A stretch of DNA of 43,466 nucleotides from a virus: the IMG/VR virus record IMGVR_UViG_3300045988_091197. One strand, written 5' to 3'. How positions within the stretch are numbered: position 1 is the stretch's first letter; each line of letters opens with the position of its first letter. The translations under genes were made by a program, and so were the position numbers. The notes under the pieces were generated by a model that had not been told where the DNA came from, did not search any database, and worked only from the letters and a program-made list of their open reading frames with translations. Below are positions 1,283-24,568 of this stretch, piece by piece.

Positions 1283-3278
1283 GCGCCCACGCGACGACGC
1301 GGTCGAGAGCGACGCATCCGGCGCACTGCCGGTGGACGCACCGCCTGCGGGGAGTATGGGAAACATGGCGCTGATGCAGTCGATAGACCTTAGCGCGCTC
1401 CCCGTGGGGAATGTCGAAACACACAACGCGTTTTCACAGCGCATAGGCGCAGACCAAATAGCCGAGGCGTGGCAGACCCTCCTGAAGTACAAAGAGGGCA
1501 AGGCAAACCTTGAGCGCCGCATTGTCGACAACCACCAGTGGTACAAGCTGCGGCAATGGGACTGCATGCGCAAACACGGCGACGGTCAGGTGGAGCCGGT
1601 GTCCGGCTGGCTCTTTAACGCCATTGCGAATAAGCATGCAGACGCTATGGACAACTTCCCGCGCGCCAACATCTTGCCACGTGAAGAAGGAGACAAGGCC
1701 GAGGCCGAGATGCTGTCGTCCATTATTCCGGTAATCCTCGACCAGTGCGATTTCGAGCAGGTGTACAGCAGCGTCATGGACGACAAGTTGATAGGCGGCA
1801 CCGGCGTGTATGGCGTGTTCTGGGATAACACCAAGCTCAACGGGCTTGGTGACATAGACATTGAGGCCATAGACGTTATAAATCTCTTTTGGGAGTCCGG
1901 TATATCGGATATTCAGCAATCACGCAACCTGTTTTATGCCACACTCCGAGACAACGAGCTGCTCGAAAGCGAGTACCCGCAGCTCGCGGGCAAGCTTGCA
2001 GCGCCGGTCATGGACATTGCGAAGTACGTCTATGACGACACGATAGACACTACGCAAAAGTCTGTTGTTGTGGACTGGTATTACAAAAAGATGCAGGACG
2101 GGCGCGCCGTGCTCCACTACTGCAAGTTTGTTGCCGGGCAGCAGGAACCGCTGTTCGCCACCGAAAACGATCCGGATTATGCGTCTGCTGGCTGGTATAA
2201 TCATGGGCTTTACCCGTTCGTGTTTGATCCGCTGTTCTCCTGCAAGGGGACTCCGTGCGGTTTCTCGTACATCGACGTCGGCAAACGCACGCAGGAATAC
2301 ATAGACCGCGGAGACAAGGCGATCATGGAAAACCTGCTCTTTAACGCCTCGCCGCGGCACTTCTCCCGTATCGACGGAGGCATAAACGAGCAGGAATACG
2401 TCGATACCACGAAGAAGATCGTGCATGTTGAGGGCTCACTGTCGGACGACTACGTGAAGCCCATACCGGTAAACCCACTCAATGAGATATATGTCACTGT
2501 TATCAACAACAAGATTGACGAACTCAAGGAGACGACGGGCAACCGCGACGTATCGTCCGGCGGAACAACGGGAGGCGTTACGGCGGCAAGCGCAATAGCA
2601 GCCATGCAGGAAGCCGGCAGCAAGCTGTCACGCGACGGCAACAAGGCGGCTTACAGAGCTTTCCGCAAGGTTCAGGTGATGGTCATAGAGCTGATACGAC
2701 AGTTTTATGACACCGCGCGCTGCTTCCGTATTATTGGCGAGAACGGCGCACAGCGCTTTGTGCAGTACTCCAACGCCGGTATTCTCCCACAGGCGCAAGG
2801 ACAGCTGGTAGGCGGCACGCCAATGGAGCTGGGCGTCGAAGTCGGGTACAGATTGCCGCTGTTTGACGTTGAAGTCACAGCGGAAAAAGCGAGCCCATAC
2901 AGCAAAATGAGCCAAAATGAGTTGGCTTTGCAGTTTTATTCTGCGGGCTTCTTCGTGCCGGAACAGGCTGACGCGGCGCTCATTTGCCTTGACATGATGG
3001 ACTTTGACCGCAAGCAGTTCGTGATGCAGAAGATAGCCCAGAACGGGCAGATATATAAGCAGATGATTGCGGCGCAGAGCGTTGCTTTACAGCTTGCACA
3101 GACGCTGGATGCTGGCACGGGCGGGCAGCTTGCCGAGACGCTTGCGGCTCAATTCGGGATGCAGGCTCCGACGGCAGCACCCGGAACCGTGAACCCCGCG
3201 GCCGCGGACACAGGAAGCGAAAGCAGCGTGACGAAAAATGCAAGGCAGACGGCTGCGGAAGCTTCTGCGCCGAGATAA
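1266..3278 (+). CDS. Portal protein
   Basis: 670-aa ORF immediately after terL, overlapping its end, with GGAGA 7 nt upstream of the ATG. Size and position are typical of a portal. Confidence 0.8.
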   Translation: MAMLNKRPRDDAVESDASGALPVDAPPAGSMGNMALMQSIDLSALPVGNVETHNAFSQRIGADQIAEAWQTLLKYKEGKANLERRIVDNHQWYKLRQWDCMRKHGDGQVEPVSGWLFNAIANKHADAMDNFPRANILPREEGDKAEAEMLSSIIPVILDQCDFEQVYSSVMDDKLIGGTGVYGVFWDNTKLNGLGDIDIEAIDVINLFWESGISDIQQSRNLFYATLRDNELLESEYPQLAGKLAAPVMDIAKYVYDDTIDTTQKSVVVDWYYKKMQDGRAVLHYCKFVAGQQEPLFATENDPDYASAGWYNHGLYPFVFDPLFSCKGTPCGFSYIDVGKRTQEYIDRGDKAIMENLLFNASPRHFSRIDGGINEQEYVDTTKKIVHVEGSLSDDYVKPIPVNPLNEIYVTVINNKIDELKETTGNRDVSSGGTTGGVTAASAIAAMQEAGSKLSRDGNKAAYRAFRKVQVMVIELIRQFYDTARCFRIIGENGAQRFVQYSNAGILPQAQGQLVGGTPMELGVEVGYRLPLFDVEVTAEKASPYSKMSQNELALQFYSAGFFVPEQADAALICLDMMDFDRKQFVMQKIAQNGQIYKQMIAAQSVALQLAQTLDAGTGGQLAETLAAQFGMQAPTAAPGTVNPAAADTGSESSVTKNARQTAAEASAPR

Positions 3279-3287
3279 GGAGAGCAC

Positions 3288-3632
3288 ATGATACGGGCAG
3301 CTTTTATCGTTGACAAAACAAAAGGCACGCTGACAATGAGCGTTCGCGGGCATTCCGGCCTCGGCGCTCGCGGCCGCGATCTTGTATGCGCCGGGGCTTC
3401 CACACTCGCTTATACGGCGGCGCAGAACATAGATTTTATGGCAAAGGCCGGACAATTTGACGGCGAGCCGAAGATCATAATACACGAGGGGCACATGAAG
3501 GTGCAGTGCAAGCCCAAGCCGGAACACTACGCCGAAGCCCTGCACACGTTCTTCGTTGTGCAGACAGGTATGTTATTGCTGGCGAAGAATTTCCCAAAGA
3601 ACATTGAGCTTAAACCGTTTGAGACCGCCTGA
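3288..3632 (+). CDS. prp: Prp-like cysteine protease (ribosomal-processing protease family, DUF464)
   Basis: 114 aa. The motif GHSG...GRDLVCAGAS matches the His/Cys dyad context of Prp. It has an AAGGAG RBS and sits between portal and scaffold. Confidence 0.75.
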   Translation: MIRAAFIVDKTKGTLTMSVRGHSGLGARGRDLVCAGASTLAYTAAQNIDFMAKAGQFDGEPKIIIHEGHMKVQCKPKPEHYAEALHTFFVVQTGMLLLAKNFPKNIELKPFETA

Positions 3633-3705
3633 GGGCGTATCAATAGGAGTCGTCCACCATACGGACAGGTTAAAGAGTCGTTCGCTTAACGGACAGGAGG
3701 ATACC

Positions 3706-4653
3706 ATGAGCAAATACATTAGCCTTGACTGTTTCGACATCCAGCTTTTCGCCGAAGGCGGCGCAGGAGCCGGAGGCGGCACCGGAGCAGCGGGCGCAAC
3801 GGGCGTAAGCGCTGCTGACGCCGGGCAGCAATCAACAGGCGCGGGCAATCCACTCGCAGGCGTGAAGTATGGCAAGCAGGCGGACGCCGCCGGAGAGGCG
3901 CAGGGCGCGGCAGGAGAGACCGTAGCCGGAGACAGCCCGGAACAGGCCAGAGCGCGCCAGTTCAAGGCGCTTATCAAGGGCGAGTACAAAGACCTTTATG
4001 ACGCGGAAGTCAATGACGTTGTGCGCAGACGTTTTAAGGCGACCGACGAAAAGGTAAGCCGCTATGATGCGCTGTCGCCTACTCTGGAATTGCTATGCAG
4101 GAAGTACGGCGTGGAGAACGGCGACGTAGAGGCGCTTGGCAAGGCCATAGAGGATGACGACAGTTTCTTCGAGGAAGAAGCAATGCAGCGTGGTATGAGC
4201 GTACAGCAACTTAAGCAGGTGCGCAAGATGGAGCGCGAGAACGCCGACCTCAAGCGCCAGATGCAGGAGCGCCAAACCCAAGAGCAGGCCGACAAGCTGT
4301 ACAGTACATGGCTCAATCAGGCAGAAGAGGCAAAGCGCATATACCCTGATTTTGACCTTGCAGCGGAGCTTCAGAACGCGGACTTCCAGTCGCTTCTCCG
4401 CAGCAACATCCCGGTGCAGACGGCCTACGAGGTTGTCCACAAAGACGAGATCATAACACGAGGAATGAACTTTGCCGCAAAGACCGTGGAAAAGAAGATT
4501 GCGAATGATATGATCGCGCGAGGCCGCAGACCCAGCGAGGGCGCAATGTCTCAGGGGGCGGCGGTCATTAAGAGCGATGTGTCGCAGCTCACCAAAGCAG
4601 ACAGGCGGGAAATAGCCCGCCGCGTAGCCAGAGGGGAGAAAATAGTATTCTGA
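3706..4653 (+). CDS. Scaffolding protein with N-terminal Prp-type propeptide (MSKYISLDCFDIQLFA/EGG)
   Basis: AGGAGG at 3695-3700 precedes ATG 3706. The product has a Gly/Ala-rich N-terminus followed by charged, coiled-coil-like sequence. The gene lies just upstream of the capsid gene. The longer ORF-track start at 3556 has no RBS. Confidence 0.75.
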   Translation: MSKYISLDCFDIQLFAEGGAGAGGGTGAAGATGVSAADAGQQSTGAGNPLAGVKYGKQADAAGEAQGAAGETVAGDSPEQARARQFKALIKGEYKDLYDAEVNDVVRRRFKATDEKVSRYDALSPTLELLCRKYGVENGDVEALGKAIEDDDSFFEEEAMQRGMSVQQLKQVRKMERENADLKRQMQERQTQEQADKLYSTWLNQAEEAKRIYPDFDLAAELQNADFQSLLRSNIPVQTAYEVVHKDEIITRGMNFAAKTVEKKIANDMIARGRRPSEGAMSQGAAVIKSDVSQLTKADRREIARRVARGEKIVF

Positions 4654-4699
4654 CGCAGAAGACCGGCTTCTCCTCAAAATTCATAAAGGAGAACAACAA

Positions 4700-5779
4700 A
4701 TGAAGAAAATCAAATCTATCCTGTTTCCCATGCTGCTTATGAATATGCAGCTCTTTGCAACGCAGACCACGTTGCTCAACAGTACCGGCAACGACCTTTC
4801 GCCGGAAATGAAGACCTTCTATGACATGACGCTGCTCGACGAGGCGCAGGCACAGCTGGTTCACGACCAGTTCGGCCAGAAGCGCCCCATTCCCAAGAAC
4901 GGCGGCAAGACCATAGAATTCCGCAAGTTCAGTTCCCTCGCTAAGGCGCTGACTCCGCTCACTGAGGGCGTCACTCCGAACGGCAACAGCCTTGACGTGA
5001 CGACTATCACCGCGACTGTTAAGCAGTTCGGCGATTATATCGTCATGTCCGATGTCCTTGAACTGACCGCCCTTGACCCGATTGTTCTTGAGGCGACCAA
5101 GCTTCTGGGCAGACAGGGCGGCCTGACCCTTGACACTGTTGTCCGCAACATCCTGTGCGCAGGCACCAACGTGACCTACTGCCCGCAGATCGGCACCGGC
5201 GGCGCCGAAACCGAAGTGACGAGCCGCAGCGGGCTGAATACCACGTCTCAGCTCACCGTTGACGTTGTGCAGCAGGTTGTTGCCAAGCTCCGCGCGCAGA
5301 ATGCGCCCACCATCGACGGCGATTATGTCGCCATAATCCACCCGTACGTCGCATATGACCTGATGCGCGACCCCGAATGGATCGATGCGCACAAGTATGC
5401 ACAGCCTGACAACCTGTATACCGGCGAGATCGGCAAGATAGCCGGTGTGCGCTTCGTGCAGACTACCGAGGCAAAGATCTGGAATGACGAGACCTGCCCG
5501 GTAAAGACCGCGGCAGCAAGCGGCAATCCCGCCGTTTATTACAGCGTGTTCGCCACTCTGTTCATCGCCGACGGCGCGTACGGCACGACCGAGGTCGAGG
5601 GCGGCGGTATGCAGACCTTTGTCAAGCAGAAGGGCAGCGCCGGTACTGCCGACCCGCTCGATCAGCGCAGCTCCGTCGGCTGGAAAGCGCTCAAAACCGC
5701 AGAAATACTCATGCCGAACTATCTGGTTCGTGTTGAGTCTGTCTCCAAGCGTTTCAGCGGTACGGCGAAAGCCAACTGA
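4700..5779 (+). CDS. Major capsid protein (HK97-fold type) with N-terminal Prp-type propeptide (…MNMQLFA/TQT)
   Basis: 359 aa with an AAGGAG RBS, located after the scaffold gene. The QLFA motif is at 4748-4759. Confidence 0.85.
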   Translation: MKKIKSILFPMLLMNMQLFATQTTLLNSTGNDLSPEMKTFYDMTLLDEAQAQLVHDQFGQKRPIPKNGGKTIEFRKFSSLAKALTPLTEGVTPNGNSLDVTTITATVKQFGDYIVMSDVLELTALDPIVLEATKLLGRQGGLTLDTVVRNILCAGTNVTYCPQIGTGGAETEVTSRSGLNTTSQLTVDVVQQVVAKLRAQNAPTIDGDYVAIIHPYVAYDLMRDPEWIDAHKYAQPDNLYTGEIGKIAGVRFVQTTEAKIWNDETCPVKTAAASGNPAVYYSVFATLFIADGAYGTTEVEGGGMQTFVKQKGSAGTADPLDQRSSVGWKALKTAEILMPNYLVRVESVSKRFSGTAKAN

Positions 5780-12012: not shown

Positions 12013-12024
12013 TAGGAGGCGGCC

Positions 12025-15000
12025 ATGAACAGCATAGATAGACTTCTCGCGCATGTAGACGAAGAAGAACAGAAGCGGAGCAATGCGGGCGAAACCGCGG
12101 AAAGACGCGGCAGCACCGGAACATCTGATCCAATAAAAGACTTGCTCGACCATGTTGCCGCGGTAGAGTCCGGAGAACTACCGCGCTACACTTCCACCGA
12201 CTACTCCGAAACTTCATATCAGGAGCCGCAGCGCGAACAGGTGAGTTTTGGGGAGAGAATAAAGAACTTCTTCAAAGGCAGCGACAACCGGCGCGATGAA
12301 AGCGGACTGAGCGGCAGCCAGACGCAGCGCTTCCGCGACTTACAGGCACAGCTAAACGAGATAGACCGCAACAGCGGATATGCAACAACGGCAGAGACAA
12401 GCGACGAACTCGAACAGCAACGCCGGAATATCATCAGGCAGCTTGACGAGCTTGACGAGGAGGCGGGACGCGAGGCACGTACATACAGCCCCTCGGACAG
12501 GATAGACAACGTAATAAAAAGCTGGCTCAATCGCACGGGAGCAGGGTATACAAACGCCGCAGGCAGCATATTAGACCTCGGAAGCAGTAAGCGGAAGTCT
12601 CTCCGGCAGCAGCAGGAAGAGGCAGACATGGCGCGCTTTGCCGAACGCAACCCGGAAGCGGCGGCGGAAGCCCAAGCTGCTGAGGAAAGATATAGGCAAA
12701 GCCTCAGAGGTGCGAGAGACAGCACGTATAAAGCCGCCGACAAGATGCAGAGCAGCGCCGAACGGCAGCTTGCAAAGAGCGAATACGGCACGAGCGCGGC
12801 GGGAAGCTTTGCGATAGACGCGGCGATGACCGGCGCGGACATAATCACCGACGCCGCGTTTGCGAAGCTCACAGGCATAACCGGTCTTGCAAACATGGCG
12901 CTGCGCGTCTACGGCTCAGAGTCTCAGGATGCGAGACTGTCCGGAGACGACGCCGAGACAGCGGCCGCAAAGGGCTTGAAAGCGGCGACGATTGAGGTCA
13001 TAACCGAAAAGCTCGCGGGTCCATTTGAGCTGGCGTACGGCAAGAGCTTAGGCCGTCAGGCGATGGGAAAGACGGCGGGCAAGATTGCGCGCGTATTTGA
13101 CCGGCTGGAAACCAACGGCGTTCTTAAGTGGGTGTTCGACACGGCGGGCGAGGGCGCAGAGGAAGGCCTGAGCGACGTGCTGAACATCATAGCGGATCAT
13201 GTGTTCAACTGGGACGATGGAGACATGACGATACTTGAGGAAATAGCCTCGGACAAAGACGACATTCTCTATGACATGATTCTCGGAGCGTTCGTCGGCG
13301 CGTTCGGCGCTACAACAAGCGCCATTGCCGAAGGGGAGCAGGGCAGAAGAGTTAAAAATATATACGGCAAGGAGGGGGCGGCAGCACTCGTTGACGAAGG
13401 GTTGTTAAGCGGCGAGGGCACCAAAAGCCGCCGCCTAGCTGAGAGATACAATGAGAAGCTGCAAAGCGGCCGAGAGCTTACAGGGCGGGAAATGAGCCAA
13501 CTTATAGAAGCCAATGACATGGCTTTTGCGGACGAGTCACCCGAAAACCGCGGCGCAGACGCAAGCGAGCCAGAGCAGACCGATCATGTTGAAAAAGCTA
13601 TTTCCAAGATAGCCAAGAACGACACAGAGGCTGATCTGCTGCGCGAAGATTTTACGCTCGGCGAAGCAGACGCAGAAACATATGCTCGCGGCGCGGAGGA
13701 GGCGTATAATTACGGCAAGCTCGGCGTGAGTATGGAAGATGCTGTGCAGAACGGCTCGTTCATAAACGACCTCACGGAGGCGCAGAGAGACCACGCATAC
13801 AAGCTCGGACAGCAGGAGAGCAGCGCCGACACGCTCACCGAAGAGGACGCCGCGCAGGGTGCAGAGGCTGACACGGCAGACGCGAACGCCGAAAATGTTG
13901 ACGCATATGCGGCGAAGTACGGCGACGAAGCGCCGGCCGTTATAGCTTCGTATAATTCCGGAGAAGTGAAGGGCATCGGCGAGTTCTCCACAGCTTTCGA
14001 TGCAGCATACAACATGGGCAGAAGCGGAGTGCCGGAAAGTGAGCTTTCAGCTTCTGCAGCACTCTCATATCTCAGCGACGCACAGCGCAAGACCGCGTTC
14101 GATATGGGGCGCGCTTCCGCGAGCAAAGCGGCAGCGCAGGCGCAGACAGAGGTGAAGTCGGCGGCCAAGCCGGGCAAGCTGAATCGAAAGGGCGTTGTGA
14201 AGGGCGAGGGCGTGACGCTGAAAGAGCTGAAAAGCACGTTTAACGATCGGCAGAACACGGCGTACCGGCTCTTGAGCACCTTCGCAGAGGCAACCGGCGT
14301 TGACGTTGTGCTGTATAAAACTTCGGCAGAGCCTGACGGCAGCTTTGCAAGCGAGCAGGGGCGTTTTACGTGGAAGGACGACACCATCTATGTGGATATA
14401 AACAGCGGGCTTTATTCGTCAAAGGACGTGGAAAGCCTCGGCAAGTACACAATGATGCGCACTTTTGCGCACGAGTTCACGCATTTTATTGAAAAATGGA
14501 ACCCGGCACAGTATAATGATTTCAGAAGCTTTGTGTTCGGCACACTGGCTGGAAAAGGAGAGAGTGTCAACGACCTAATTGAAAGCAAAATGAGCCTCGA
14601 TAGCAGCGGCAAACTTGACTACGAGCAGGCGAGCCGCGAGGTTATCGCAGACGCTATGGTTGATATCCTGCCGGACAGCAACATCGTCCAGCGCCTTGCA
14701 AGCGAACACGAGAGCATATACAAAAAGCTGTTACAGAAGCTCAGAGACTTTACTGCTCGTCTCAAGCAGTATTATAAGGAGATAACCACACGCCCCGGAC
14801 GCGAAGCACAGGCACTCAAAGAGCAAGTGGGCGAGGGCACAAGATACATGCAGTCCATTGTGGATATGTGGACAAATGCGGCAGAGGGCGCGGTGAGGAG
14901 CTACAAGGCTGCGGAAGGCACGGAGCAGCGCATTGAAAACAAGGCAAAGCCGGAAGCGACCAAGCTGAAGGAAGCGCCCAAGCAGAAGCCGAAAACGGAG

Positions 15001-18000
15001 CAGCCGAAGGCAAAGGAAAGCGCCGCCGAAACGGCGGAAAAAGCTCCTCCAAAGGAAAACGACGAGCTTACGAGGCTGCGGGACAGGCTTGATGCATTGA
15101 GATATACAGAAGTAAACGGCTTCGGCTTTGCAGTGACCGCGACTGCGGGAAAGGACGGGGAGGCTGTATATCGAGCACGCATAAACAGAGTTGCCTCCGA
15201 CCCGCTTCACATCGAGGACGCAAAGGCGGTGTACAGCGAAGCCTTCACAAGCCTTGAGGACGCGATCGAGTCACTGGTTGCGGTTGCGGAGAACAACAAT
15301 TTGCTCACGCCTGTCGAGGCGGACAAGGAAGCAACGGAAACAAAAGAAACCGTCGCACAAGAAGAAGCACCGGCAAAGAGCGACGAGAAGAACCGGGAGA
15401 TGGAAAGCGGCACTCCGTCTGAAAAGACCGCTTACAGGATACTCACCGAGTATTTAGCTGCCGGAAAGAAGCTTACAAGCAAGGAGCTTTACAGCATTTG
15501 CGACGAGACCTTCAACGGCACTCAGGCAGAGGGAGCATATGACCGTAAAGCGGCATATGACGCGATGGAGCTTGCCGTGAACAGATACCTGCTCACAAAC
15601 GCCGCAGATTTGAACGGAGACACGGCAGAAGACGCGAGAAGAGGGCTTGAACGAGTGCAGGGCATACTGTCGCTTCTCCCGACGCAGAATGTCCGTACAC
15701 AGGAAATGGAGCAGTTTCAGCAGTTCTCCACGCCTCCTAACATAGCATACCTCGCGGCGTGGGCAGCAGACATAAACAGCTCCGACCTTGTTCTTGAGCC
15801 GTCGGCGGGAATAGGCGGCCTTGCTGCTTTTGCAAAGGCGTGGGGAGCGGAGGTAGCCGTGAATGAGCTTTCTGAACGCAGGCTTGCGGTGCTGAAAGCT
15901 ATGGGATTCGACCATGTTTTCAACGAGAACGCAGAGCAGATAGACAACGTCCTTCCGGAGAGCATAAAACCGACGGCTGTGATCATGAACCCGCCGTTTT
16001 CTTCCACGGCAGGACGCACGGCAACGAATAAGACCTCAAACGCGGAGCGGCATATAAATCAGGCGCTTGCGCGGCTGAACGACGGTGGAAGACTTGTTGC
16101 TATTCTCGGCAGAGGCATGGCAGATAAAGCCTACAGTAAGTACTGGGATAAGCTGCGGCAGGATTATAATATCCGTGCGAACATCTCTATTGACGGGGAA
16201 AACTATAAAAAGTACGGCACTACCTTTGATGTGCAGCTTGTTGTGATAGATAAAACAGGGGCGCAGGGCAGCGCAGAGACTGTTACGGGAAGCTACAAAG
16301 ACCTTGCGGAAATACCAAATGTTTTGGAGGGAATAAGAAATGACCGAAGTGCAGAGACTGAACGCGACTCCGCTGTCGCAGGGGTTCAAGAAGCTTCTCC
16401 CGTGGAACAGGGCGGAGAGGGAACTGTACGTGCTCCAGTGGATACGGCAGACGGTGGAGCTGATGCAGGGGTACTGGAACTCGGGAGCAGACCCGGAAGT
16501 ACTGGCGAACCTCGAAGCGCTGACATTCACGGAGAAGTACAGCGAGGCATACAGGATGCTTCTGCCGCCGACGGAGCCGCTGTACAGCAACAGCGAGCTG
16601 ATGCGGCAGATAAAAAGAGTGGAAAGCGCACAGACAGAGGAGCAGATAGAGGAGAAGAGCGTAACACTGCTAGAGATGCTGGTGGACAACTCAACATTCA
16701 GCGACTCGGAGCTGGCGGACTTGAAACCGAGTCTGCACGAGGACAGGTAACCGAAAAGGGGCGGTCAAATAAGCGCAGTGATGACGGCGTTTATGCGGAT
16801 TATGTCGCGCCGGAGCTGACAGTTAAGGGCAGCAAGCCGCACCCGGCAGTGCTTGTGGAAAGCTCGGCTATGTCGGCGGTTTTCATGCCGAAGGCGACAT
16901 ACACTCCTCACCTGCCGGAGAATGTTATAAAAAACAATCTTTCAACAGAACAGCTTGTATCTGTTACATATGCAGGTCAGGCGCACGAACAGACACTCCC
17001 AAACGGCGAACGCAAGGGCTTCTTTATCGGCGACGGCACGGGCGTCGGCAAGGGCAGAGAGATAAGCGGAATCATCTTGGACAACTTCGAGCAGGGCAGA
17101 GACAAGGCCGTGTGGATATCCATGAATGACAAGCTTTTCGCAGACGCGCAGAGAGACTGGGCTGACACGACCGGCAGAGGAAAAGATGAAATTCATCTTC
17201 AAGGAAAAACAAAGCTACAAAACAAAATAGACTTCGGAAGCGGAATTCTGTTCACCACATATCCAACACTCAGAACGGAGAAAGGGCAGCTCAGCCGAAT
17301 AAATCAGATCGTCGAATGGCTAGGAAAGGACTTTGACGGAGTCATAGCGTTTGACGAGGCGCATAATATGGGTAATCTTCTCGGTTCAAGCGGCAAGTTC
17401 GGCAGAACGAAAGGCTCGGCAATGGCGGCGGCAGCCGTCAAGCTTCAATCCCTACTCCCAAAGGCGAGGGTGGTGTATGTATCGGCGACGGCGGCAACGG
17501 ACGTTCAGGGGCTTGCATTTGCCTCGCGGCTTGGACTGTGGGGGCGCGGCACGGCGTTTACCGACGTCAACGATTTCGTGTCGAAGATACAGTCCGCCGG
17601 GCTTGCGGCGATGGAGCTTGTCGTGCGTGATATGAAAGCGATGGGCGTTTATGTTTCGCGCAGCATCAGCTACAACGGCGTTAGCTATGACACCGTGCAG
17701 CATGATCTTGACCCGATGCAGACCGAGATATATAACACCATGAGCCGCGCATGGCAGAAGACAATGGGCAGCGTGGAGGAATCCCTCAAGTCCACCGGTG
17801 GGGTACACAACAGCAACGCGAAGCAGCTTGCCATAGGCCAGTATTACAGCGCCATGCAGCGCTTTTACAATCAGGTTCTTACCTCCATGTCTATGCCAAG
17901 CGTTATAGCCGACATGAAAAAGGAGCTTGCGGCCGGAAAATCATGCGTACTCCAGATAGTAAACACGAACCAAGCCGAAGCCGACCGCCAGATAGCGAGC

Positions 18001-21000
18001 ATAAAGGCGGACGGCGGAAGCCTTGACGACATGGATTTAACGCCGCGCGGGACGCTTATAGGCTATCTTGAAAACTGCTATCCCATTATCCAGTACGAGG
18101 AATACACGGACGAAAACGGTGCTGTAAGGTCGCGCCCGGTAACTGACAGCAAGGGGGAGCCGGTAATTGACAGAGCCGCGGTGAGAAAGCGCGACGCGCT
18201 TATCGAGGAGGTCAAGCAGATGGCCATCCCGGACGGCCCGCTTGAAATGCTGTTTAATGCGTTCGGCACGGATCAGGTTGCAGAGATAACCGGCAGAACG
18301 CGGCGCGTTGTGCCGCGCAAGCAGCCGGACGGCAGCATAAAAAGAGTTGAGGAGAGTCGCAGCAAGGCACACACGGCGGCGGACGTGCAGGCGTTTCAGG
18401 ACGGGGATAAGCGAATACTTGTATTCTCGGACGCCGGCGGCACGGGCAAGAGCTATCACGCGTCCAGAACTGCGAAAAACCAGCAGCAGCGCGTACATTA
18501 TGTATTGCAGCCCGGCTGGGTAGCGTCAAAAGCTGTGCAGGGCTTTGGCCGGACACACCGCAGCAATCAGAGCAGTGCACCTATCTATAAGCTCGTAACC
18601 ACAAACATCAAAGGGCAGAAGCGCTTTACATCGACGATTGCCCGCAGGCTCGACCAGCTCGGCGCGCTTACCAAAGGGCAGCGAGACACCGGCAGCGGAA
18701 TGTTCGGCGCAAAGGACAACCTTGAAACCGACCTCGCGCGGGACAGTCTGAGAGAATTTTACCGCCGACTCGGCAAAAACCAAATCGACGGCATTGACGG
18801 CATGGACACCTTGCAGCGGCTTGGACTAAAGAGCAAGTTCACGGATGAGTTCGGCGCGTTCAAGCTTGACGACTCAACGTCGCGAGATATAAGCACCTTC
18901 CTTAACCGCATACTTGCGCTTGAGGTAGACGAGCAGAACACGCTGTTCGATGCATTTATCAACATCTACGAGACGGAAATGGAAGCCGCGATTCAGGCCG
19001 GTACGCTTGACACCGGTATGGAGAATGTCAAGGCGGACAAAATCGAGATTGTCGACGACAAGGTTATCAAGGAGCAGGAGACAACCGGCGCGGCGACGCA
19101 CTATATTCAGGCGAAGATCTATACCAAGCCCAAAATCATATCCACGGTTGCGGCGGCGGAGGGGCTGCGCAGCGGCTTCATGGGGATATACAAGACCAAA
19201 AACGGAGATATCCGCGCAGTGTACCGCATTGCGGACAAAACAACGGAATGGGGCGAGGTACAAAAGCAATACAAGCTGCAATCTCCGAATGCCGCCAAAT
19301 CCTCCATATGGAAGGAGAGCAGCTTTGAAAAGAACGCTGAGCTGCTGCCAAAGGACGAATGGCAGACCGAATGGGACAAGGAGATAAAAAAAGTCCCCGA
19401 ATATAACGAGGACACTAAGCATATGCTCACCGGTACGCTGCTGCCGATATGGTACGCCCTCCCCGATGACGGCAACACAAAGGTGCAGCGGCTTGTTGCT
19501 GACGACGGCTCCACATATCTCGGCAGGGTAATAAGCCCTGACAAGATTGACGACGTTCTCAAGCGCTTCAATCTCAACCGTACGAAGGAGATTTTTACGG
19601 CTGAAAAGGTGATGGACTCGGCAATAAAGCGAGGGACGCGATTTGACCTGACATATTACAGGGCTCAACTGTTCAGAAGCCGTGTAAGCGGAGAATGGCG
19701 GCTTGAATATAAGCAGGGGCAGAACTCATGGTACGTCGCTCGGCAGTTCCCGGAGCTTATCCACGAGAAAATAAACTATCAAGACCGCTATTTCGTGCCT
19801 CTCAACGATGAGGGACGAGCAGTGCTTGACAAAATTCTCGAAGAAAACCCGGTAACAAATACGAGCGAGGGCAGCGACTCAGACGGCTATGTGCAGTATT
19901 CAAAGCGCGGCAGGGACGATTCCTCGGTCGATTCATACGACCCGGAAACGGCCAACGTGAAAGAGCAGATCGCGAACAGCAGTGCTGAGCTGAACAAGAT
20001 GACCGTCGCGGCGACCGTTAACGCGCCTGCAAACTTCACGAGCAAAGAAGCGGCAAGTAAATGGGCTATCGCTATGCTTGAGCACACGGGATTTCAGGTT
20101 GACCGGAAGAACTTCGGGAAAATCTTTTTCTCTCAAAAGGATATCAAAACAAGCGTTAGGTATGCTGACACGGCGGCAGAGAAAGCCGCTTTCGCGGCTC
20201 TGCCGGCTGTGCTGAAAAAGGGCATAGAAATAGGCAGACACAGTAACCACAAAGCGCGAGGCAAGGAAACGGTTACTTTTGCGGCACCGGTTATCCTAAA
20301 CGGTGTACGCGGTAACATGGGAGTGGTCGTTAATCTCAGGGGCAATCACTACTATGCGCACAGAATCGTGCTACCGGACGGCGGGATATTTGTTCTGTCA
20401 GAAAACGAAAATGATGCAGCACGAGAATTGCCCCGGGGAGTGACCATTTCTGGCTCTCTTGCCGACGCCACAAGTACTGCATCTGTAAATAGTATAGCAT
20501 CCGGCTTGAATTTTGACAAGGAAAATTTTGCAACAGAGGTTGACACGGAACTTTCAACACGCGCACCGGCGCTTTCAGACCGTGAGGTTCTGCAATATGC
20601 GGCTAAAAACATAGACGCAAGCACCCTCACACCGGCGCAGGCTGACGCGCTGAGAATATTCAAGGAGCGCGTTGACAGGCTGCAAGAGCTTCAGGAGCAG
20701 CGGCAGGAGCTGGGGCGTGAGTACCGCGAGCAGCAATTCAAACGACCGGTAGACCGCAACGCGGCGACGGTGACGAAAAACAGGATGGGAGTACTCGACG
20801 GCAAAATCCGGGCGCTCGAAAACAGCGTTGTTTCGCTTGAGGACAAAGATGTATTGCGTCAGGTGCTGAAAGAAGCGCGGCGGTTTGTTGAAAAACGCGA
20901 GCGGACGCAGGGCGCACTGAGGCTGAAAGAATACCGCGAAGCGCGCAACGAAAGCGCAAGCCTCAAGAAGTACCGCGCAAGGGTGCTCAAAGAGGCTGAA

Positions 21001-24000
21001 ACACTGCGGGACATGCTTATGAATCCAAGCAACAAAAACGTGCTGAAACGCGTACCCGGAGCGATACAGAAAACGGTAGCGGACTTTATAGGCGCGATAG
21101 ACTTCACCAGCAAACAGGCTTTGCGCGGCGGAGCGGCGACGCAGGCCGACCAGCGCATTATGTCACAGATGCGGGCGATGCGGGATGCAATCAAGGATAA
21201 CATTGACCTTCAAGGCGAATACTCAGGGTACGCCGACTTGCCTCCTGACTTTATGGATAGCTTCCAGAAGCAGATAGACCGGATGCAGGAGTTAGTAAAC
21301 GAGAGCAGCGGAGAGTATGTTATAAACAAGATGTCTGCCGCTGAACTGAGAGAGCTTGCGCACACGCTGCGAGATATACGCCGATATATTCAGGACATGA
21401 ACCGCTTCCACGAAAACGCCATGTTCCAACACGCTTACGATGCGGGTGAGGATACGATAGCCGACTTGGAGGCAAAGGGCAAGGCGCGGAGACTGCGCAA
21501 CAACGAGATATATAACGGGCTTGCGTGGAAGTATATGCGCCCCGTTTACGGCCTTGAACGTCTCGGAAGGGGCGGAAAGTCAATAAGCGACGAGTTCAGA
21601 AAAGGGCAGGCAAAGCAGGCATTCCTTGCAAAGCAGGTTATAGATTTCTCTGAAAAAGCTTATACCGCTAAGGAAGCGCAGGCGTGGAGCCGCGAAGTGA
21701 AAGCCGTACAGATAGGCGACTCGACCGTACACATGACGGCTGCGCAGGCGATGAGCTTTTATTGCCTTATGCGCAGGCCGCAGGCGAGGACTCATATCTT
21801 CGGGGACGGTATCCGCGTTGCCAACTTTGAAAACGGGAGGATGGTCTACCGCGACGAAGGGCACCGGCTGACGGTCGGAGAGGCAAACGCAATTATAAAC
21901 AGCCTGAGCGAGAGGCAAAAGGCCGTTGCGGATGAGCTGCAGAAGTTTATGTCCGAAGAGTGCGCCGAGTGGGGCAACTATGTCAGCCTTGCGCGCTTTG
22001 GGACAAAGCTCTTCGGCGAAGAAAACTATTTCCCGATAAACTCCGACGGGCGTTATTTGCAGGCCACGGCAGACGAAAGTCCAAGCAACGCAAGCCTTTA
22101 TGCGCTGCTGAATATGGGCTTTACCAAAGAGCTGAACGAAAAGGCGAGGAACCGCATAGTGCTGTATGACATTTTCGACGTGTTTGCAAACCACGCAGCG
22201 AGTATGACGCAGTACAGCAGCTTCGCTCTGCCGGTTCTCGATGCGCTTAAATGGTTCAACTACAAAAATGATGAAACATCGGTTCGTGACAAGATGGCGG
22301 CGGCTTACGGTGCGCCGACCGAGAGCAAGCCGGGAAGCGGGTCGAAGAGCTATGCCGAAAGCTTTGTGCTGAATTTGCTCAAACAGTATAACGGCACAGC
22401 GGCTCGCGGAGATGCATTTGATGCATGGGGAATAAAGGGATTGCACCTGTTTAACCGTGCACAGGTTGCTTTTAACGTGCGAGTTATCATACAACAGCCG
22501 ATGGCCATTACGCGCGCGGCGCAGATCATCTCGCCCACGAAGCTTGCGAAAGGACTATCCGTGTCAGCGACGCAGATGAAAACCCTTGCGGCAGAGATGG
22601 AGGCGCACAGCGGAATAGCGGCGTGGAAAGGACTCGGTTTTTATGACACGAACATCTCGCGCGGCCTTACGGCACTGATAAAGCACGATCAGAGCTTCGC
22701 CGGCAAAGTTACGGAAGCAGGCATGACAGGCGCGGAGCAGGCAGACCGCTTTACGTGGGCGGCTATGTGGTATGCCTGCAAGGACAGTGTGAAGCGCGGC
22801 GACTACAAGACCGAGGGCGAGTATTTTGATGCAGTAACGGAACTTTTCGAGGACGTCATATACAAAACTCAGGTTGTCGACAGCGTACTTACAAAGGCGG
22901 AATTTCTGAGAGCGCAGGGATTCTTCCCACGAATGATGGGCTCCTTCATGTCGGAGCCGAGCGCGACTGTATCCATGCTTATGGACACGTATATGCAGTA
23001 CACCGACGCGCTTCAAAGCGGCATGAGCAAAGGGGCAGCGTGGCAGAAGTACGGAGATACCATACGCAGGACTATAACGGTATATGCCATCGGGCAGGTG
23101 CTCATATCTGCGGTTCAGGCCGTGGCGGATGCATGGCGCGACGACGATGACTACCAGACATTCTGGGAGAAGTATCTCGAAGCACTCAAGGGGAACCTTG
23201 TTGATAATCTGCTTCCGTTCGGCAATATCCCGTATGTTTCAGAACTGTATGACCTTGCAAAGAACCTTTTATCAAAGTTTGGCGTGGACACATACGGCAG
23301 CGGCATTTCAAACGGATGGATGCAGTATGCGCAGTATCTTGAAAGAGCGACAGAAATCTTCGCGGATAAGATTCGTGGCAGCAATACGCGGTACACCACA
23401 TGGGGTGGCGTGTACAACCTGCTGCGCGCCGTGGCCGGCATGACCGGGTTGCCTTTGGCTACAGCCACACGCGAGGTCATCGACGTGTGGAACAACACCA
23501 TAGGCGCAGCAAACCCTGACAGGAAGATAAAGACCTATGATTCCGGCGCAAAGGCGAGTATTAAGTACGCATATCAGGACGGTTATCTGAGCTTCGACGA
23601 GGCGGTTGAAAAGCTCCGCGAGAAGGGCGTGGAAACCGACAAAAACAAGGCGTACTTAATGGTCAAGAGCTGGGATACGGGCGGAAAGTACAGCGAATTG
23701 ACGGCTGCGGCTGCATCCGGCGACCGGGCAGCGTTCAGAGCGGCGCTGCAGGAACTCGTAGAACACGGCGTTGCGGAGAAAGACGCTTACAATGCGGTGA
23801 GGAAGGATATCAAGGAACGGTATCTGGACGGAGACATCACCGAAGTGCAGGCAATAAGCGCGCTTACTGCGTTCGGTGACAAAGACCGCGACGAAGCGCA
23901 AGGCTATGTTCAGGGCTGGCAGTTCAGCCGGGATTACCCGCAGTATGACTGGACGGATGCTGAGATAACAACATACAGCACAGACATAAAGCGCACGGGG

Positions 24001-24213
24001 ATAAGCCCGGATGTATTCGACAGGTATCTCACAGAACTTGATAACTGCAAGGGAACCGACGATGACGGCGACGGCAAGACCGACAGCGGCAGCGTCAGGG
24101 CGCAGGCGATTGTTATGATAGATGCACTTCCGATAAGCGCGGCGCAGAAAGACGCGCTGTATCTTCTCAACTGGAAGGAAAGCACTCTGAGCAAGACGCC
24201 GTGGCACAGCTAA
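12025..24213 (+). CDS. Giant 4062-aa polyvalent protein with zincin-like HExxH, N6-adenine DNA methyltransferase and SNF2/strawberry-notch-type helicase modules plus a long C-terminal region (DarB-like, probably virion-packaged and ejected)
   Basis: Uninterrupted ORF with AGGAGG just upstream. HEFTH is at 14470-14484. MTase motif I VLEPSAGIGG is at 15790-15819 and motif IV NPPF at 15988-15999. Helicase motifs are GDGTGVGKG at 17029-17055, DEAH at 17353-17364 and QGFGRTHRSNQ at 18538-18570. Confidence 0.9.
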   Translation: MNSIDRLLAHVDEEEQKRSNAGETAERRGSTGTSDPIKDLLDHVAAVESGELPRYTSTDYSETSYQEPQREQVSFGERIKNFFKGSDNRRDESGLSGSQTQRFRDLQAQLNEIDRNSGYATTAETSDELEQQRRNIIRQLDELDEEAGREARTYSPSDRIDNVIKSWLNRTGAGYTNAAGSILDLGSSKRKSLRQQQEEADMARFAERNPEAAAEAQAAEERYRQSLRGARDSTYKAADKMQSSAERQLAKSEYGTSAAGSFAIDAAMTGADIITDAAFAKLTGITGLANMALRVYGSESQDARLSGDDAETAAAKGLKAATIEVITEKLAGPFELAYGKSLGRQAMGKTAGKIARVFDRLETNGVLKWVFDTAGEGAEEGLSDVLNIIADHVFNWDDGDMTILEEIASDKDDILYDMILGAFVGAFGATTSAIAEGEQGRRVKNIYGKEGAAALVDEGLLSGEGTKSRRLAERYNEKLQSGRELTGREMSQLIEANDMAFADESPENRGADASEPEQTDHVEKAISKIAKNDTEADLLREDFTLGEADAETYARGAEEAYNYGKLGVSMEDAVQNGSFINDLTEAQRDHAYKLGQQESSADTLTEEDAAQGAEADTADANAENVDAYAAKYGDEAPAVIASYNSGEVKGIGEFSTAFDAAYNMGRSGVPESELSASAALSYLSDAQRKTAFDMGRASASKAAAQAQTEVKSAAKPGKLNRKGVVKGEGVTLKELKSTFNDRQNTAYRLLSTFAEATGVDVVLYKTSAEPDGSFASEQGRFTWKDDTIYVDINSGLYSSKDVESLGKYTMMRTFAHEFTHFIEKWNPAQYNDFRSFVFGTLAGKGESVNDLIESKMSLDSSGKLDYEQASREVIADAMVDILPDSNIVQRLASEHESIYKKLLQKLRDFTARLKQYYKEITTRPGREAQALKEQVGEGTRYMQSIVDMWTNAAEGAVRSYKAAEGTEQRIENKAKPEATKLKEAPKQKPKTEQPKAKESAAETAEKAPPKENDELTRLRDRLDALRYTEVNGFGFAVTATAGKDGEAVYRARINRVASDPLHIEDAKAVYSEAFTSLEDAIESLVAVAENNNLLTPVEADKEATETKETVAQEEAPAKSDEKNREMESGTPSEKTAYRILTEYLAAGKKLTSKELYSICDETFNGTQAEGAYDRKAAYDAMELAVNRYLLTNAADLNGDTAEDARRGLERVQGILSLLPTQNVRTQEMEQFQQFSTPPNIAYLAAWAADINSSDLVLEPSAGIGGLAAFAKAWGAEVAVNELSERRLAVLKAMGFDHVFNENAEQIDNVLPESIKPTAVIMNPPFSSTAGRTATNKTSNAERHINQALARLNDGGRLVAILGRGMADKAYSKYWDKLRQDYNIRANISIDGENYKKYGTTFDVQLVVIDKTGAQGSAETVTGSYKDLAEIPNVLEGIRNDRSAETERDSAVAGVQEASPVEQGGEGTVRAPVDTADGGADAGVLELGSRPGSTGEPRSADIHGEVQRGIQDASAADGAAVQQQRADAADKKSGKRTDRGADRGEERNTARDAGGQLNIQRLGAGGLETESARGQVTEKGRSNKRSDDGVYADYVAPELTVKGSKPHPAVLVESSAMSAVFMPKATYTPHLPENVIKNNLSTEQLVSVTYAGQAHEQTLPNGERKGFFIGDGTGVGKGREISGIILDNFEQGRDKAVWISMNDKLFADAQRDWADTTGRGKDEIHLQGKTKLQNKIDFGSGILFTTYPTLRTEKGQLSRINQIVEWLGKDFDGVIAFDEAHNMGNLLGSSGKFGRTKGSAMAAAAVKLQSLLPKARVVYVSATAATDVQGLAFASRLGLWGRGTAFTDVNDFVSKIQSAGLAAMELVVRDMKAMGVYVSRSISYNGVSYDTVQHDLDPMQTEIYNTMSRAWQKTMGSVEESLKSTGGVHNSNAKQLAIGQYYSAMQRFYNQVLTSMSMPSVIADMKKELAAGKSCVLQIVNTNQAEADRQIASIKADGGSLDDMDLTPRGTLIGYLENCYPIIQYEEYTDENGAVRSRPVTDSKGEPVIDRAAVRKRDALIEEVKQMAIPDGPLEMLFNAFGTDQVAEITGRTRRVVPRKQPDGSIKRVEESRSKAHTAADVQAFQDGDKRILVFSDAGGTGKSYHASRTAKNQQQRVHYVLQPGWVASKAVQGFGRTHRSNQSSAPIYKLVTTNIKGQKRFTSTIARRLDQLGALTKGQRDTGSGMFGAKDNLETDLARDSLREFYRRLGKNQIDGIDGMDTLQRLGLKSKFTDEFGAFKLDDSTSRDISTFLNRILALEVDEQNTLFDAFINIYETEMEAAIQAGTLDTGMENVKADKIEIVDDKVIKEQETTGAATHYIQAKIYTKPKIISTVAAAEGLRSGFMGIYKTKNGDIRAVYRIADKTTEWGEVQKQYKLQSPNAAKSSIWKESSFEKNAELLPKDEWQTEWDKEIKKVPEYNEDTKHMLTGTLLPIWYALPDDGNTKVQRLVADDGSTYLGRVISPDKIDDVLKRFNLNRTKEIFTAEKVMDSAIKRGTRFDLTYYRAQLFRSRVSGEWRLEYKQGQNSWYVARQFPELIHEKINYQDRYFVPLNDEGRAVLDKILEENPVTNTSEGSDSDGYVQYSKRGRDDSSVDSYDPETANVKEQIANSSAELNKMTVAATVNAPANFTSKEAASKWAIAMLEHTGFQVDRKNFGKIFFSQKDIKTSVRYADTAAEKAAFAALPAVLKKGIEIGRHSNHKARGKETVTFAAPVILNGVRGNMGVVVNLRGNHYYAHRIVLPDGGIFVLSENENDAARELPRGVTISGSLADATSTASVNSIASGLNFDKENFATEVDTELSTRAPALSDREVLQYAAKNIDASTLTPAQADALRIFKERVDRLQELQEQRQELGREYREQQFKRPVDRNAATVTKNRMGVLDGKIRALENSVVSLEDKDVLRQVLKEARRFVEKRERTQGALRLKEYREARNESASLKKYRARVLKEAETLRDMLMNPSNKNVLKRVPGAIQKTVADFIGAIDFTSKQALRGGAATQADQRIMSQMRAMRDAIKDNIDLQGEYSGYADLPPDFMDSFQKQIDRMQELVNESSGEYVINKMSAAELRELAHTLRDIRRYIQDMNRFHENAMFQHAYDAGEDTIADLEAKGKARRLRNNEIYNGLAWKYMRPVYGLERLGRGGKSISDEFRKGQAKQAFLAKQVIDFSEKAYTAKEAQAWSREVKAVQIGDSTVHMTAAQAMSFYCLMRRPQARTHIFGDGIRVANFENGRMVYRDEGHRLTVGEANAIINSLSERQKAVADELQKFMSEECAEWGNYVSLARFGTKLFGEENYFPINSDGRYLQATADESPSNASLYALLNMGFTKELNEKARNRIVLYDIFDVFANHAASMTQYSSFALPVLDALKWFNYKNDETSVRDKMAAAYGAPTESKPGSGSKSYAESFVLNLLKQYNGTAARGDAFDAWGIKGLHLFNRAQVAFNVRVIIQQPMAITRAAQIISPTKLAKGLSVSATQMKTLAAEMEAHSGIAAWKGLGFYDTNISRGLTALIKHDQSFAGKVTEAGMTGAEQADRFTWAAMWYACKDSVKRGDYKTEGEYFDAVTELFEDVIYKTQVVDSVLTKAEFLRAQGFFPRMMGSFMSEPSATVSMLMDTYMQYTDALQSGMSKGAAWQKYGDTIRRTITVYAIGQVLISAVQAVADAWRDDDDYQTFWEKYLEALKGNLVDNLLPFGNIPYVSELYDLAKNLLSKFGVDTYGSGISNGWMQYAQYLERATEIFADKIRGSNTRYTTWGGVYNLLRAVAGMTGLPLATATREVIDVWNNTIGAANPDRKIKTYDSGAKASIKYAYQDGYLSFDEAVEKLREKGVETDKNKAYLMVKSWDTGGKYSELTAAAASGDRAAFRAALQELVEHGVAEKDAYNAVRKDIKERYLDGDITEVQAISALTAFGDKDRDEAQGYVQGWQFSRDYPQYDWTDAEITTYSTDIKRTGISPDVFDRYLTELDNCKGTDDDGDGKTDSGSVRAQAIVMIDALPISAAQKDALYLLNWKESTLSKTPWHS
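16340..16750 (+). CDS. Candidate overprinted gene (136 aa) in the +1 frame of the giant gene's methylase-helicase linker
   Basis: GGAGGG at 16326-16331, an 8-nt spacer, then ATG 16340. An in-frame TAA lies at 16334-16336. The product has globular, helix-like composition. About 108 of 136 codons end in G/C (hand count), while the host frame here uses mostly A/T-ending codons. Confidence 0.55.
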   Translation: MTEVQRLNATPLSQGFKKLLPWNRAERELYVLQWIRQTVELMQGYWNSGADPEVLANLEALTFTEKYSEAYRMLLPPTEPLYSNSELMRQIKRVESAQTEEQIEEKSVTLLEMLVDNSTFSDSELADLKPSLHEDR

Positions 24214-24223
24214 ACACAAGATC

Positions 24224-24256
24224 GGGAGGGGGGATTTATTCCCCCTCCTTTTTATT
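24224..24256 (+). terminator. Rho-independent terminator after the giant gene
   Basis: Stem ggagggggg / cccccctcc-like (GGAGGGGGG-ATTTATT-CCCCCTCC) followed by TTTTTATT. Confidence 0.85.
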
Positions 24257-24284
24257 GATAATATATAGCGCAGGGGTGATAACC

Positions 24285-24410
24285 ATGATAATAGGGCATG
24301 TGCGCGGGCAGGAACTAAAACTTGACCGCACGACCATTGCCGCGCTGGAGCAAGATAATGCCGAGTTGCGAAGCGCAATCGAGGCGCTTATAAGCGGGGT
24401 GACGGAATGA
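24285..24410 (+). CDS. Small hypothetical protein (41 aa)
   Basis: ATG 24285 follows AGGGGTG. The gene is coupled by an ATGA overlap to the next ORF. Confidence 0.45.
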   Translation: MIIGHVRGQELKLDRTTIAALEQDNAELRSAIEALISGVTE

Positions 24411-24568
24411 CGCTGGTAGACAAGGCAAAAGCGTACAACCGAGAGCTTAAAGAGGCGCTACAGCTCATATACGATGAGCTTAATCAAGGACAGCGCAAGA
24501 AGCTACTGCGCAATGCTACAATCAAGGCGCTGTATGAGCGTTACGGGATAGGAGGTAACGATGAGTAA
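24407..24568 (+). CDS. Small hypothetical protein (53 aa)
   Basis: Translated by hand: MTLVDKAKAYNRELKEALQLIYDELNQGQRKKLLRNATIKALYERYGIGGNDE. It overlaps both neighbouring genes. It is below the ORF-track size cut-off. Confidence 0.5.
   Translation: MTLVDKAKAYNRELKEALQLIYDELNQGQRKKLLRNATIKALYERYGIGGNDE

Follow-up and report, generated by a model that had tools for sequence, protein, structure and literature searches.

The 43,466-nt virus sequence IMGVR_UViG_3300045988_091197 from IMG/VR, analyzed here over its whole length and called the window, carried a giant gene on the plus strand (12025..24213, +). Its ATG start and 4062 codons plus stop encode a protein of 4062 amino acids (aa), 448 kDa and pI 5.4. 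Comparison with related proteins indicated that it is built of a conserved carrier frame and an exchangeable central cargo, which in the window comprises a DNA methyltransferase (MTase), a Strawberry-notch (Sno)-type helicase and an LPD3 domain. The gene is preceded by a ribosome-binding site read from the sequence (AGGAGG, 12014..12019, +; 5 nt ahead of the ATG at 12025) and followed, 11 nt past the stop codon, by an intrinsic terminator (24224..24259, +) with an 11-bp G+C-rich stem, a 4-nt loop and a T-run. The terL frame was open across the window ends (43303-43466 joined to 1-1282; 481 codons), and a terminal duplication was absent. The window thus represents a genome that is circularly closed or permuted, with the cut inside terL, and the giant gene makes up 28% of it.

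The original prediction, which was made from the sequence alone, had described a single uninterrupted open reading frame (ORF) of 4062 codons, and this was borne out. An independent IMG/VR contig (L004) held a copy 98.9% identical over the full 4062 aa, and the differences between the two copies (135.5 synonymous, 48.5 non-synonymous) gave a ratio of non-synonymous to synonymous rates (dN/dS) of 0.10. Uninterrupted frames of 4108-4342 codons were found in four further relatives (L005, L008, L010 and L011), making, with L004, five independent giant frames of 4065-4342 codons. The giant ORF is a real gene under selection, and a chance origin is impossible at such length. An assembly chimera, which the original prediction had named among the results that would weaken it, was ruled out by the full-length copy, its dN/dS and the further uninterrupted giants. 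The broader suspicion of a chimera, pseudogene or chance ORF could draw on the split state of the region in two relatives (2991 + 1581 aa in L001; 1561 + 784 aa in L015); set against the five frames, the dN/dS of 0.10, the ribosome-binding site and the terminator, it was effectively refuted.

Conserved frame and exchangeable cargo

BLASTP comparison showed that both ends of the protein were conserved in all relatives; in L005, L008, L010 and L011, an N module (aa ~116-1030) and a C module (aa ~2820-3960) were kept, while the center was replaced. The central ~1700 aa of the window protein were common to L004, L006 and L007 only. The center consisted of an Eco57I-type MTase and a SNF2-type helicase in L005, L008, L010, L011 and L001, and of a PBECR5 nuclease in L002. 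The size of the C-module family was determined by an exhaustive profile search with a trimmed alignment, which returned at least 4176 protein cluster representatives (2848 of them at E <= 1e-30), mostly giants of 2000-4860 aa. Co-occurrence and length counts, here and below, refer to the best 142 of these 4176 representatives. Their median length was 3252 aa, 32 reached 4000 aa or more, the largest had 4860 aa, and the C module was always near the C-terminus. The MTase-Sno-LPD3 cargo of the window was present in just 4-5 of the 142; other sampled cargo included SNF2, ART-PolyVal, LPD1, M23, MutS_I, MuF-C and PBECR domains. The conservation of both ends, the swapped centers and the family lengths thus point to a carrier frame with exchangeable cargo and an ordinary size, so that the size singled out by the original prediction was not distinctive.

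The conserved N-terminal frame (aa 231-1030; 12715..15114, +) showed 37-45% BLASTP identity to L005, L008, L010 and L011, whose central parts differ, and its aa 231-690 part occurred in 27 of the 142 representatives. Within it lie a stretch rich in Gly and Ala (aa ~255-440), a ~50-aa repeat in tandem (aa ~545-700) and an HExxH module. The repeat (window ~13660-14120), of the pattern Y/F..A...AY..G..GV...L...Q, lies just 5' of the HExxH module; it is kept in the consensus of the relatives and had no family match.

The HExxH module (aa 725-960; 14197..14904, +) was assigned as zincin-like from HEFTH (aa 816-820; nt 14470-14484), a downstream Glu872 (nt 14638-14640), the conservation of both among homologs and the topology of an AlphaFold2 (AF2) model. 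The motif FAHEFTHFIEKW quoted by the original prediction is present at aa 814-825, and its coordinates had been placed one codon off (14461-14496; correctly 14464-14499). HEF[TI]H and the helix carrying Glu872 (SREV..M.DILPD) were invariant in every homolog, and the module was found in 100 of the 142 representatives. In the model (predicted local distance difference test, pLDDT, 73), a helix, three strands, the HExxH helix and the Glu helix follow one another in the zincin arrangement. Foldseek matches to the PDB were not significant (best E 0.16; PPEP-2, E 0.21; anthrax lethal factor, E ~0.5), with zincins, including the last two, as the only enzymes among the top weak matches. A Pfam scan of the region gave no match, and a PDB sequence search with the HExxH profile returned nothing relevant. 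The lethal factor family has been tied to the metallopeptidases (MPTases) of polyvalent proteins by Iyer et al. (PMC5512222). The earlier claim of a zincin-like module therefore held for the motif, to which a conserved Glu was added, and lacked statistical confirmation for the fold; a peptidase is likely, yet unproven.

A K/E/P/A-rich, hydrophobic-poor linker identified by a composition scan (aa 949-1029; 14869..15111, +) marks the boundary between frame and cargo, where BLAST conservation breaks at aa ~1030.

The C-terminal side of the frame begins with a helical/coiled region (aa 2801-3109; 20425..21351, +), modeled by AF2 as long helices and conserved in 120 of the 142 representatives. It leads into an all-alpha C-terminal module (aa 3110-3900; 21352..23724, +), which matched phrog_22978 at E 3e-121, and a C-terminal tail (aa 3901-4062; 23725..24210, +) found in 73 of the 142. 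Over the C-terminal ~1100 aa, identity to relatives was 53-63%, and the invariant polar residues of the C module include YFPINSDGR, DVFANH, KTQVVDSVLTK, FMSEP and WRDDDDY. The AF2 model of the C module was large and mostly alpha-helical (pLDDT 76.6; predicted template modeling score, pTM, 0.74), and a globular domain is predicted. Searched against the BFVD, this fold gave 85 matches (best E 1e-43) to C-terminal pieces of polyvalent proteins from uncultured phages. The final ~1200 aa had been described as helical and hydrophobic; the first property was retained for the last ~1100 aa, and the second gave way to the predicted globular domain. Hydrophobicity was equally scarce at the N-terminal side: in the whole protein, only two 19-aa windows (aa 417 and 3683) reached a Kyte-Doolittle value of 1.4. 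A membrane protein was ruled out, as there were no transmembrane segments.

The methyltransferase-helicase cargo

All of the MTase, helicase, DEAH and C-terminal-side motifs quoted by the original prediction were present in the translation. The first domain recognized in the cargo is a gamma-class amino (N6-adenine type) DNA MTase (aa 1221-1440; 15685..16344, +), in which motifs X (FSTPP, aa 1234), I (VLEPSAGIGG, aa 1256) and IV (NPPF, aa 1322) follow in gamma order. It matched PHROG DNA-MTase families at E 2e-17 and the PADLOC models mad2 (7e-13), MTase_II and type IIG. The gamma type was thus supported by motif order and the MTase assignment by PHROG and PADLOC, with a score just short of the Pfam MTS cutoff. 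PDB sequence searches with the MTase segment returned no MTase, just weak Rossmann dehydrogenases, and those with the MTase-helicase region returned nothing relevant. No LPD36 was detected by Pfam 5' of the MTase.

Beyond a G/A/D/R-rich, hydrophobic-poor linker found by composition scan (aa 1438-1588; 16336..16788, +) lies the Strawberry-notch-type superfamily 2 (SF2) ATPase/helicase (aa 1605-2333; 16837..19023, +). Its identification was unambiguous by profile, with essentially full-length matches to Pfam AAA_34 (E 6e-112; positions 1-306 of 306) and Helicase_C_4 (E 4e-84; positions 3-270 of 271). Motifs I (GDGTGVGKG, aa 1669), II (DEAH, aa 1777) and VI (QGFGRTHRSNQ, aa 2172) are intact rather than degenerate, in agreement with the helicase type first proposed. 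A post-helicase extension (aa 2334-2660; 19024..20004, +) travels with the Sno unit; it had no family match, and in L006 and L007 it was conserved along with the MTase-Sno unit (66%). The region at nt ~19970-20420, suspected earlier to be of LPD type, was identified as LPD3 (20044..20337, +; Pfam PF18798, 27.7 bits in the whole protein and 32.4 bits in the segment, against a cutoff of 27), with GRHSNHKARG... at aa 2737 and NHYYAHRIVLPDGG at aa 2774. An NCBIfam scan gave no match.

Relation to DarB and to conjugative plasmid proteins

P1 DarB is a packaged anti-restriction MTase-helicase that protects incoming DNA from type I restriction. The window protein resembles it in that a single chain carries an MTase (aa 1221-1440) and, after it, an SF2 helicase (aa 1605-2333), but differs in its NPPF motif and Sno helicase, for which DarB-type proteins show NVPF and a SNF2-type helicase; DarB is also free-standing and, with 2255 aa, half the size. 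The sister giants L005, L008, L010 and L011 matched P1 DarB with phmmer E values of 1e-43 to 1e-62, in the same slot, and the alignment was collinear through the MTase and both helicase lobes. The window protein, however, showed no similarity to P1 DarB (BLASTP E <= 1, phmmer E <= 10). Since DarB matches the sisters and not the window protein, the comparison indicates that a true DarB cassette has been replaced in the window lineage by an analogous unit in the same slot. The label "DarB-like" was accordingly kept for architecture and position and dropped for sequence homology.

Along its entire length, the 1473-aa MTase-Sno-extension unit shared 37-43% identity with proteins encoded on 708 plasmids, of which 324 are predicted to be conjugative, and matches to the plasmid Sno proteins extended to query residue ~1440-1460 of 1473, covering the post-helicase extension. 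On a Methylomonas plasmid, for example, the unit forms the N-terminal half of a 3236-aa protein within a tra operon, which belongs to the conjugative polyvalent class of PMC5512222. These conjugative polyvalent proteins are like the window protein in that the whole MTase-Sno unit is collinear and set in a giant carrier delivered with DNA; they differ in their delivery, which uses a type IV secretion system where the phage uses a capsid, in the flanking frame domains and in their proteobacterial hosts. The same MTase-Sno unit, at ~27% identity, is contained in gp3 of the cultured Bacteroides phage BS-TP4 (L013, 1511-17686), a 5391-aa protein annotated as hypothetical whose gene adjoins the portal gene.

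Genome context, host and morphotype

Upstream of the giant gene lie genes for TerL, the portal, a Prp-type cysteine protease, a scaffold-like protein and the major capsid protein. Six genes, encoding products of 98, 126, 584, 276, 659 and 334 aa, separate the capsid gene from the giant gene, and only the 659-aa product was recognizable, as a fiber/receptor-binding type (DUF859 + Gp10_C). PDB sequence searches with the 584-aa and 659-aa proteins returned nothing relevant. The giant gene is the last of the structural module, just ahead of the lysis genes, which comprise an NlpC/P60 + PG_binding_1 lysin, an XhlA-like gene and a Hol44 holin. Beyond these are the integrase, regulators, replication genes, a separate DNA MTase and TerS.

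Among the window genes, no tail tube, sheath, chaperone pair, Dit/Tal or tape measure could be recognized, in line with the apparent absence of a separate tail tube or tape-measure gene noted by the original prediction. A short-tailed morphology is probable from this gene content. The giant protein might itself serve as the tape measure, an exceptionally long one, of a siphovirus-like tail if the remaining tail genes had diverged beyond recognition; its gene comes after head and tail genes, the product is long and for the most part helical, and BppU_N or XkdV_N-type genes follow the giant gene in relatives. This is very unlikely, as a tail tube, chaperone pair and Dit/Tal are all missing, ~1700 aa correspond to folded enzymes, and the C module is predicted to be globular (pTM 0.74). 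Moreover, relatives with similar genomes encode versions of anywhere between 1867 and 4860 aa, and no tape-measure family was matched in Pfam or PHROG.

The Prp-type protease gene (3288-3632, +; Pfam PF04327, E 2.4e-11), between the portal and scaffold-like genes, hints at Firmicute-style N-terminal processing of head proteins. Together with the lysis genes it points to a Firmicute host. Related loci on GTDB contigs were binned to metagenome-assembled genomes (MAGs) of Oscillospiraceae (L009), Ruminococcaceae (L011) and 'Ca. Treponema caballi' (L010), and the homolog P0082 bears the MAG name 'Clostridia bacterium'. The contig in the 'Candidatus Treponema caballi' MAG (JAGHRS010000025.1, 42.4 kb) has the same giant gene as the Clostridia-associated relatives and is probably a mis-binned phage contig. 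The window is probably the genome of a temperate gut phage of Clostridia with an Oscillospiraceae or Ruminococcaceae host. A megablast search of its first 12 kb against phages gave no match, and tblastn with the portal and the 584-aa protein found only uncultured fecal fragments and Bacillus phage PK1 (25.6%, with uninformative annotation). No cultured close relative was found; the nearest relatives were all metagenomic.

Comparison with other giant virion proteins

Phage-type polyvalent proteins were defined by Iyer, Burroughs, Anand, de Souza and Aravind in 2017 (PMC5512222) as chains that combine multiple, biochemically unrelated effector domains and are encoded among virion genes of the portal/terminase type. 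The window protein agrees with them in its single giant chain, its genomic setting (TerL, portal, major capsid protein and tail genes upstream, lysis genes downstream), its probable zincin-like MPTase hub, its adenine MTase followed by an SF2 helicase, and its LPD domain; a Sno-type ATPase was reported in polyvalent proteins "in a few instances" (PMC5512222). It departs from them in the ~1100-aa C module and the N-terminal frame, for neither of which a Pfam model exists. With the MTase, Sno helicase, LPD3 and HExxH module found at the end of the virion module, the assignment to the polyvalent class stood.

Giant DarB-like or polyvalent virion proteins have been described before (PMC5512222, PMC9144972, PMC6606913, PMC11318856). 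In Bcep22-like, F116/H66-like and Skulduggery-type podoviruses, "DarB-like" virion proteins of 3695-4602 aa are known (PMC9144972), and equivalents in cultured phages span 3695-5391 aa (PMC9144972 among the sources). Like the window gene, those of the Bcep22, F116 and Skulduggery types are single genes of ~20-28% of the genome, situated at the end of the virion module before the lysis genes and encoding an MTase and a helicase; unlike it, they belong to phages of Gram-negative hosts, and similarity is confined to the MTase and helicase regions (~30%). JC1 gp69, whose gene is positioned like the window giant gene, was detected in virions by mass spectrometry (PMC9144972). Skulduggery gp28 is likewise encoded by the last gene of the virion module, but has the helicase ahead of the MTase. 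The PLxRFG motif was absent from the window protein, and hhalign of the C module against the gp28 C-terminus gave a probability of 0.2%.

A further parallel, and one that is structurally solved, is offered by the virion RNA polymerase of coliphage N4 (vRNAP, gp50, ~3500 aa), a giant in which an enzyme lies between N- and C-terminal domains and a few copies of which are packaged and ejected into the host (PMC13434306). An MPTase-like region was reported in it by Iyer et al. (PMC5512222). In contrast to the window protein, its center is an RNA polymerase, its host is Gram-negative, and separate ejection proteins gp51 and gp52 are present; no sequence or fold match between the two proteins was detected.

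Proposed function

We consider it likely that the giant protein is a phage-type polyvalent protein whose frame mediates packaging and ejection, and whose MTase-helicase pair protects incoming DNA from restriction. The protein would be made late, as the product of the last gene of the structural operon; the frame would direct the protein into the virion and have it ejected together with the DNA or before it; and in the new cell, the MTase-helicase pair would load on the incoming genome and block restriction, comparable to P1 DarB against type I systems. The metallopeptidase may also cleave the polyprotein within its long linkers poor in hydrophobic residues (aa 949-1029, 1086-1142 and 1438-1588). 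Packaging into virions, ejection, activity against restriction and autoprocessing are all inferred here. Packaging and ejection are suggested by the position at the late-operon end, as in Skulduggery gp28 and the virion-detected JC1 gp69, and by the precedent of N4 vRNAP. A function equivalent to that of DarB is suggested because the sister giants hold collinear DarB homologs in the same slot. Delivery of the cargo is suggested because a frame with exchangeable cargo would make no sense otherwise, and because the cassette is shared with proteins of conjugative plasmids. The fusion with an ejection or internal-virion function put forward by the original prediction is likewise plausible, since conserved N and C frames flank swappable cargo.

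Several observations weigh against this proposal. Virion association of the window protein is proposed by analogy, and its nearest relatives are all metagenomic. The C module is unrelated to the PLxRFG C-termini of the proteobacterial giants verified by mass spectrometry, and it had no counterpart in the PDB by sequence profile or Foldseek (noise only), nor among known ejection proteins. The window protein did not match DarB itself, its MTase scored 21.9 bits with Pfam MTS, just below the 23-bit cutoff, and its zincin fold lacked statistical confirmation (best Foldseek E 0.16). The position is also not fixed, as the C-module gene precedes the capsid genes in the relative L014. Finally, self-methylation in the producer cell would be possible through the phage's second MTase, which is encoded separately from the giant-protein domain. 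This stand-alone DNA MTase (456 aa; 39754-41124, +) lies in the replication/early region and matched phrog_16427 at E 2e-45 and the PADLOC orphan MTase model at 2.8e-35.

The giant protein could alternatively remain unpackaged and act late in the producing cell, methylating or remodeling progeny DNA before packaging, as orphan MTases do. Expression from the late operon would suit this role, and MTase-helicase proteins are able to act on any DNA. We regard it as improbable, as the phage already has its stand-alone MTase, and the conserved ~2000-aa non-enzymatic frame, the peptidase and LPD3 would be left unexplained. Alternative cargoes such as ART, PBECR nucleases and the M23 peptidase are sensible only if delivered; homologous cassettes are found in conjugative transfer operons; and analogous giants are virion-associated (PMC9144972).

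A stronger competitor, tentative though it is, holds that the frame is essential DNA-ejection machinery, a trans-envelope conduit or pilot protein resembling T7 gp15/gp16, P22 gp7/16/20 or the N4 ejectosome, in a phage without a tail tube, with the cargo as a passenger. The gene would then be indispensable for infection and not an accessory anti-restriction factor; this is compatible with a polyvalent protein that delivers its MTase-helicase pair. The six genes between capsid and giant gene include no other candidate ejection, tape-measure or tail-tube gene, the frame is better conserved than the cargo, the C module is always C-terminal across thousands of giants, and N4 vRNAP is an enzyme and an ejection protein at once. 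However, strong transmembrane segments are absent, the C module, predicted to form a globular domain, has no match among known ejection proteins, a Gram-positive host has no periplasm to span, and the uncharacterized 584-, 276- and 334-aa neighbors could fill the role.

The two roles of the frame may also be joined on a larger scale. The N-frame and C module could be a general delivery chassis, present in the at least 4176 clusters of the family, which in gut Firmicute phages of a large clade without a tail tube would also serve for ejection, with effector units swapped by recombination; we raise this as a speculative extension that is possible but rather doubtful. The pluggable units would be DarB-type, plasmid-type MTase-Sno, ART, nucleases and peptidases, and if true, nature would offer a modular system by which arbitrary cargo of ~200 kDa is injected into gut Clostridia.

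Returning to the polyvalent protein that protects incoming DNA, such giants can occupy a quarter of a phage genome, and to our knowledge, none from Gram-positive gut phages has been studied experimentally. The class itself is known and very common; the new points are the uncharacterized carrier C module, the architecture and the swap of non-homologous anti-restriction cassettes. The last is a natural experiment, in which frames that are nearly identical hold a true DarB homolog in some phages and an unrelated MTase-Sno unit of the conjugative-plasmid type in others, and it speaks for strong selection on delivering an MTase-helicase pair along with the DNA. Carrier and cargo are separable and hence could be tested by domain swaps. 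The ~1100-aa C module, very common (thousands of clusters) and without a Pfam model or structure, would be a worthwhile structural target.

Additional observations

Divergence between the window gene and its L004 copy (L004 1124-13312) was patchy. The synonymous divergence (dS) was ~0 in two segments (aa 231-1600 and aa 3901-4062) but reached 0.185 in aa 2341-2660 and 0.128 in aa 2961-3900, and this patchiness suggests recent recombination within the gene between close relatives. In L001 (1041-14746), the two ORFs of the split giant gene overlap by 16 nt, and in L015 (5245-12355), the break lies within the C module; real splits, prophage decay and sequencing errors are the candidate causes. 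In the 39.8-kb relative L014, the C-module gene (1863-5759; 1298 aa) comes ahead of the scaffold and capsid genes and not behind the tail genes; a truncated ORF of 621 aa stands in front of it and is related to neither the portal nor the giant protein of the window. The C-terminal tail of the window protein contains a DxDxDG EF-hand/dockerin-like Ca-loop motif, TDDDGDGKTD (~24050-24090, aa ~4010-4020), which takes the form DxDGNG in relatives. Two small ORFs (~45-50 aa; 24283-24560, +) lie between the giant-gene terminator and the lysin gene.

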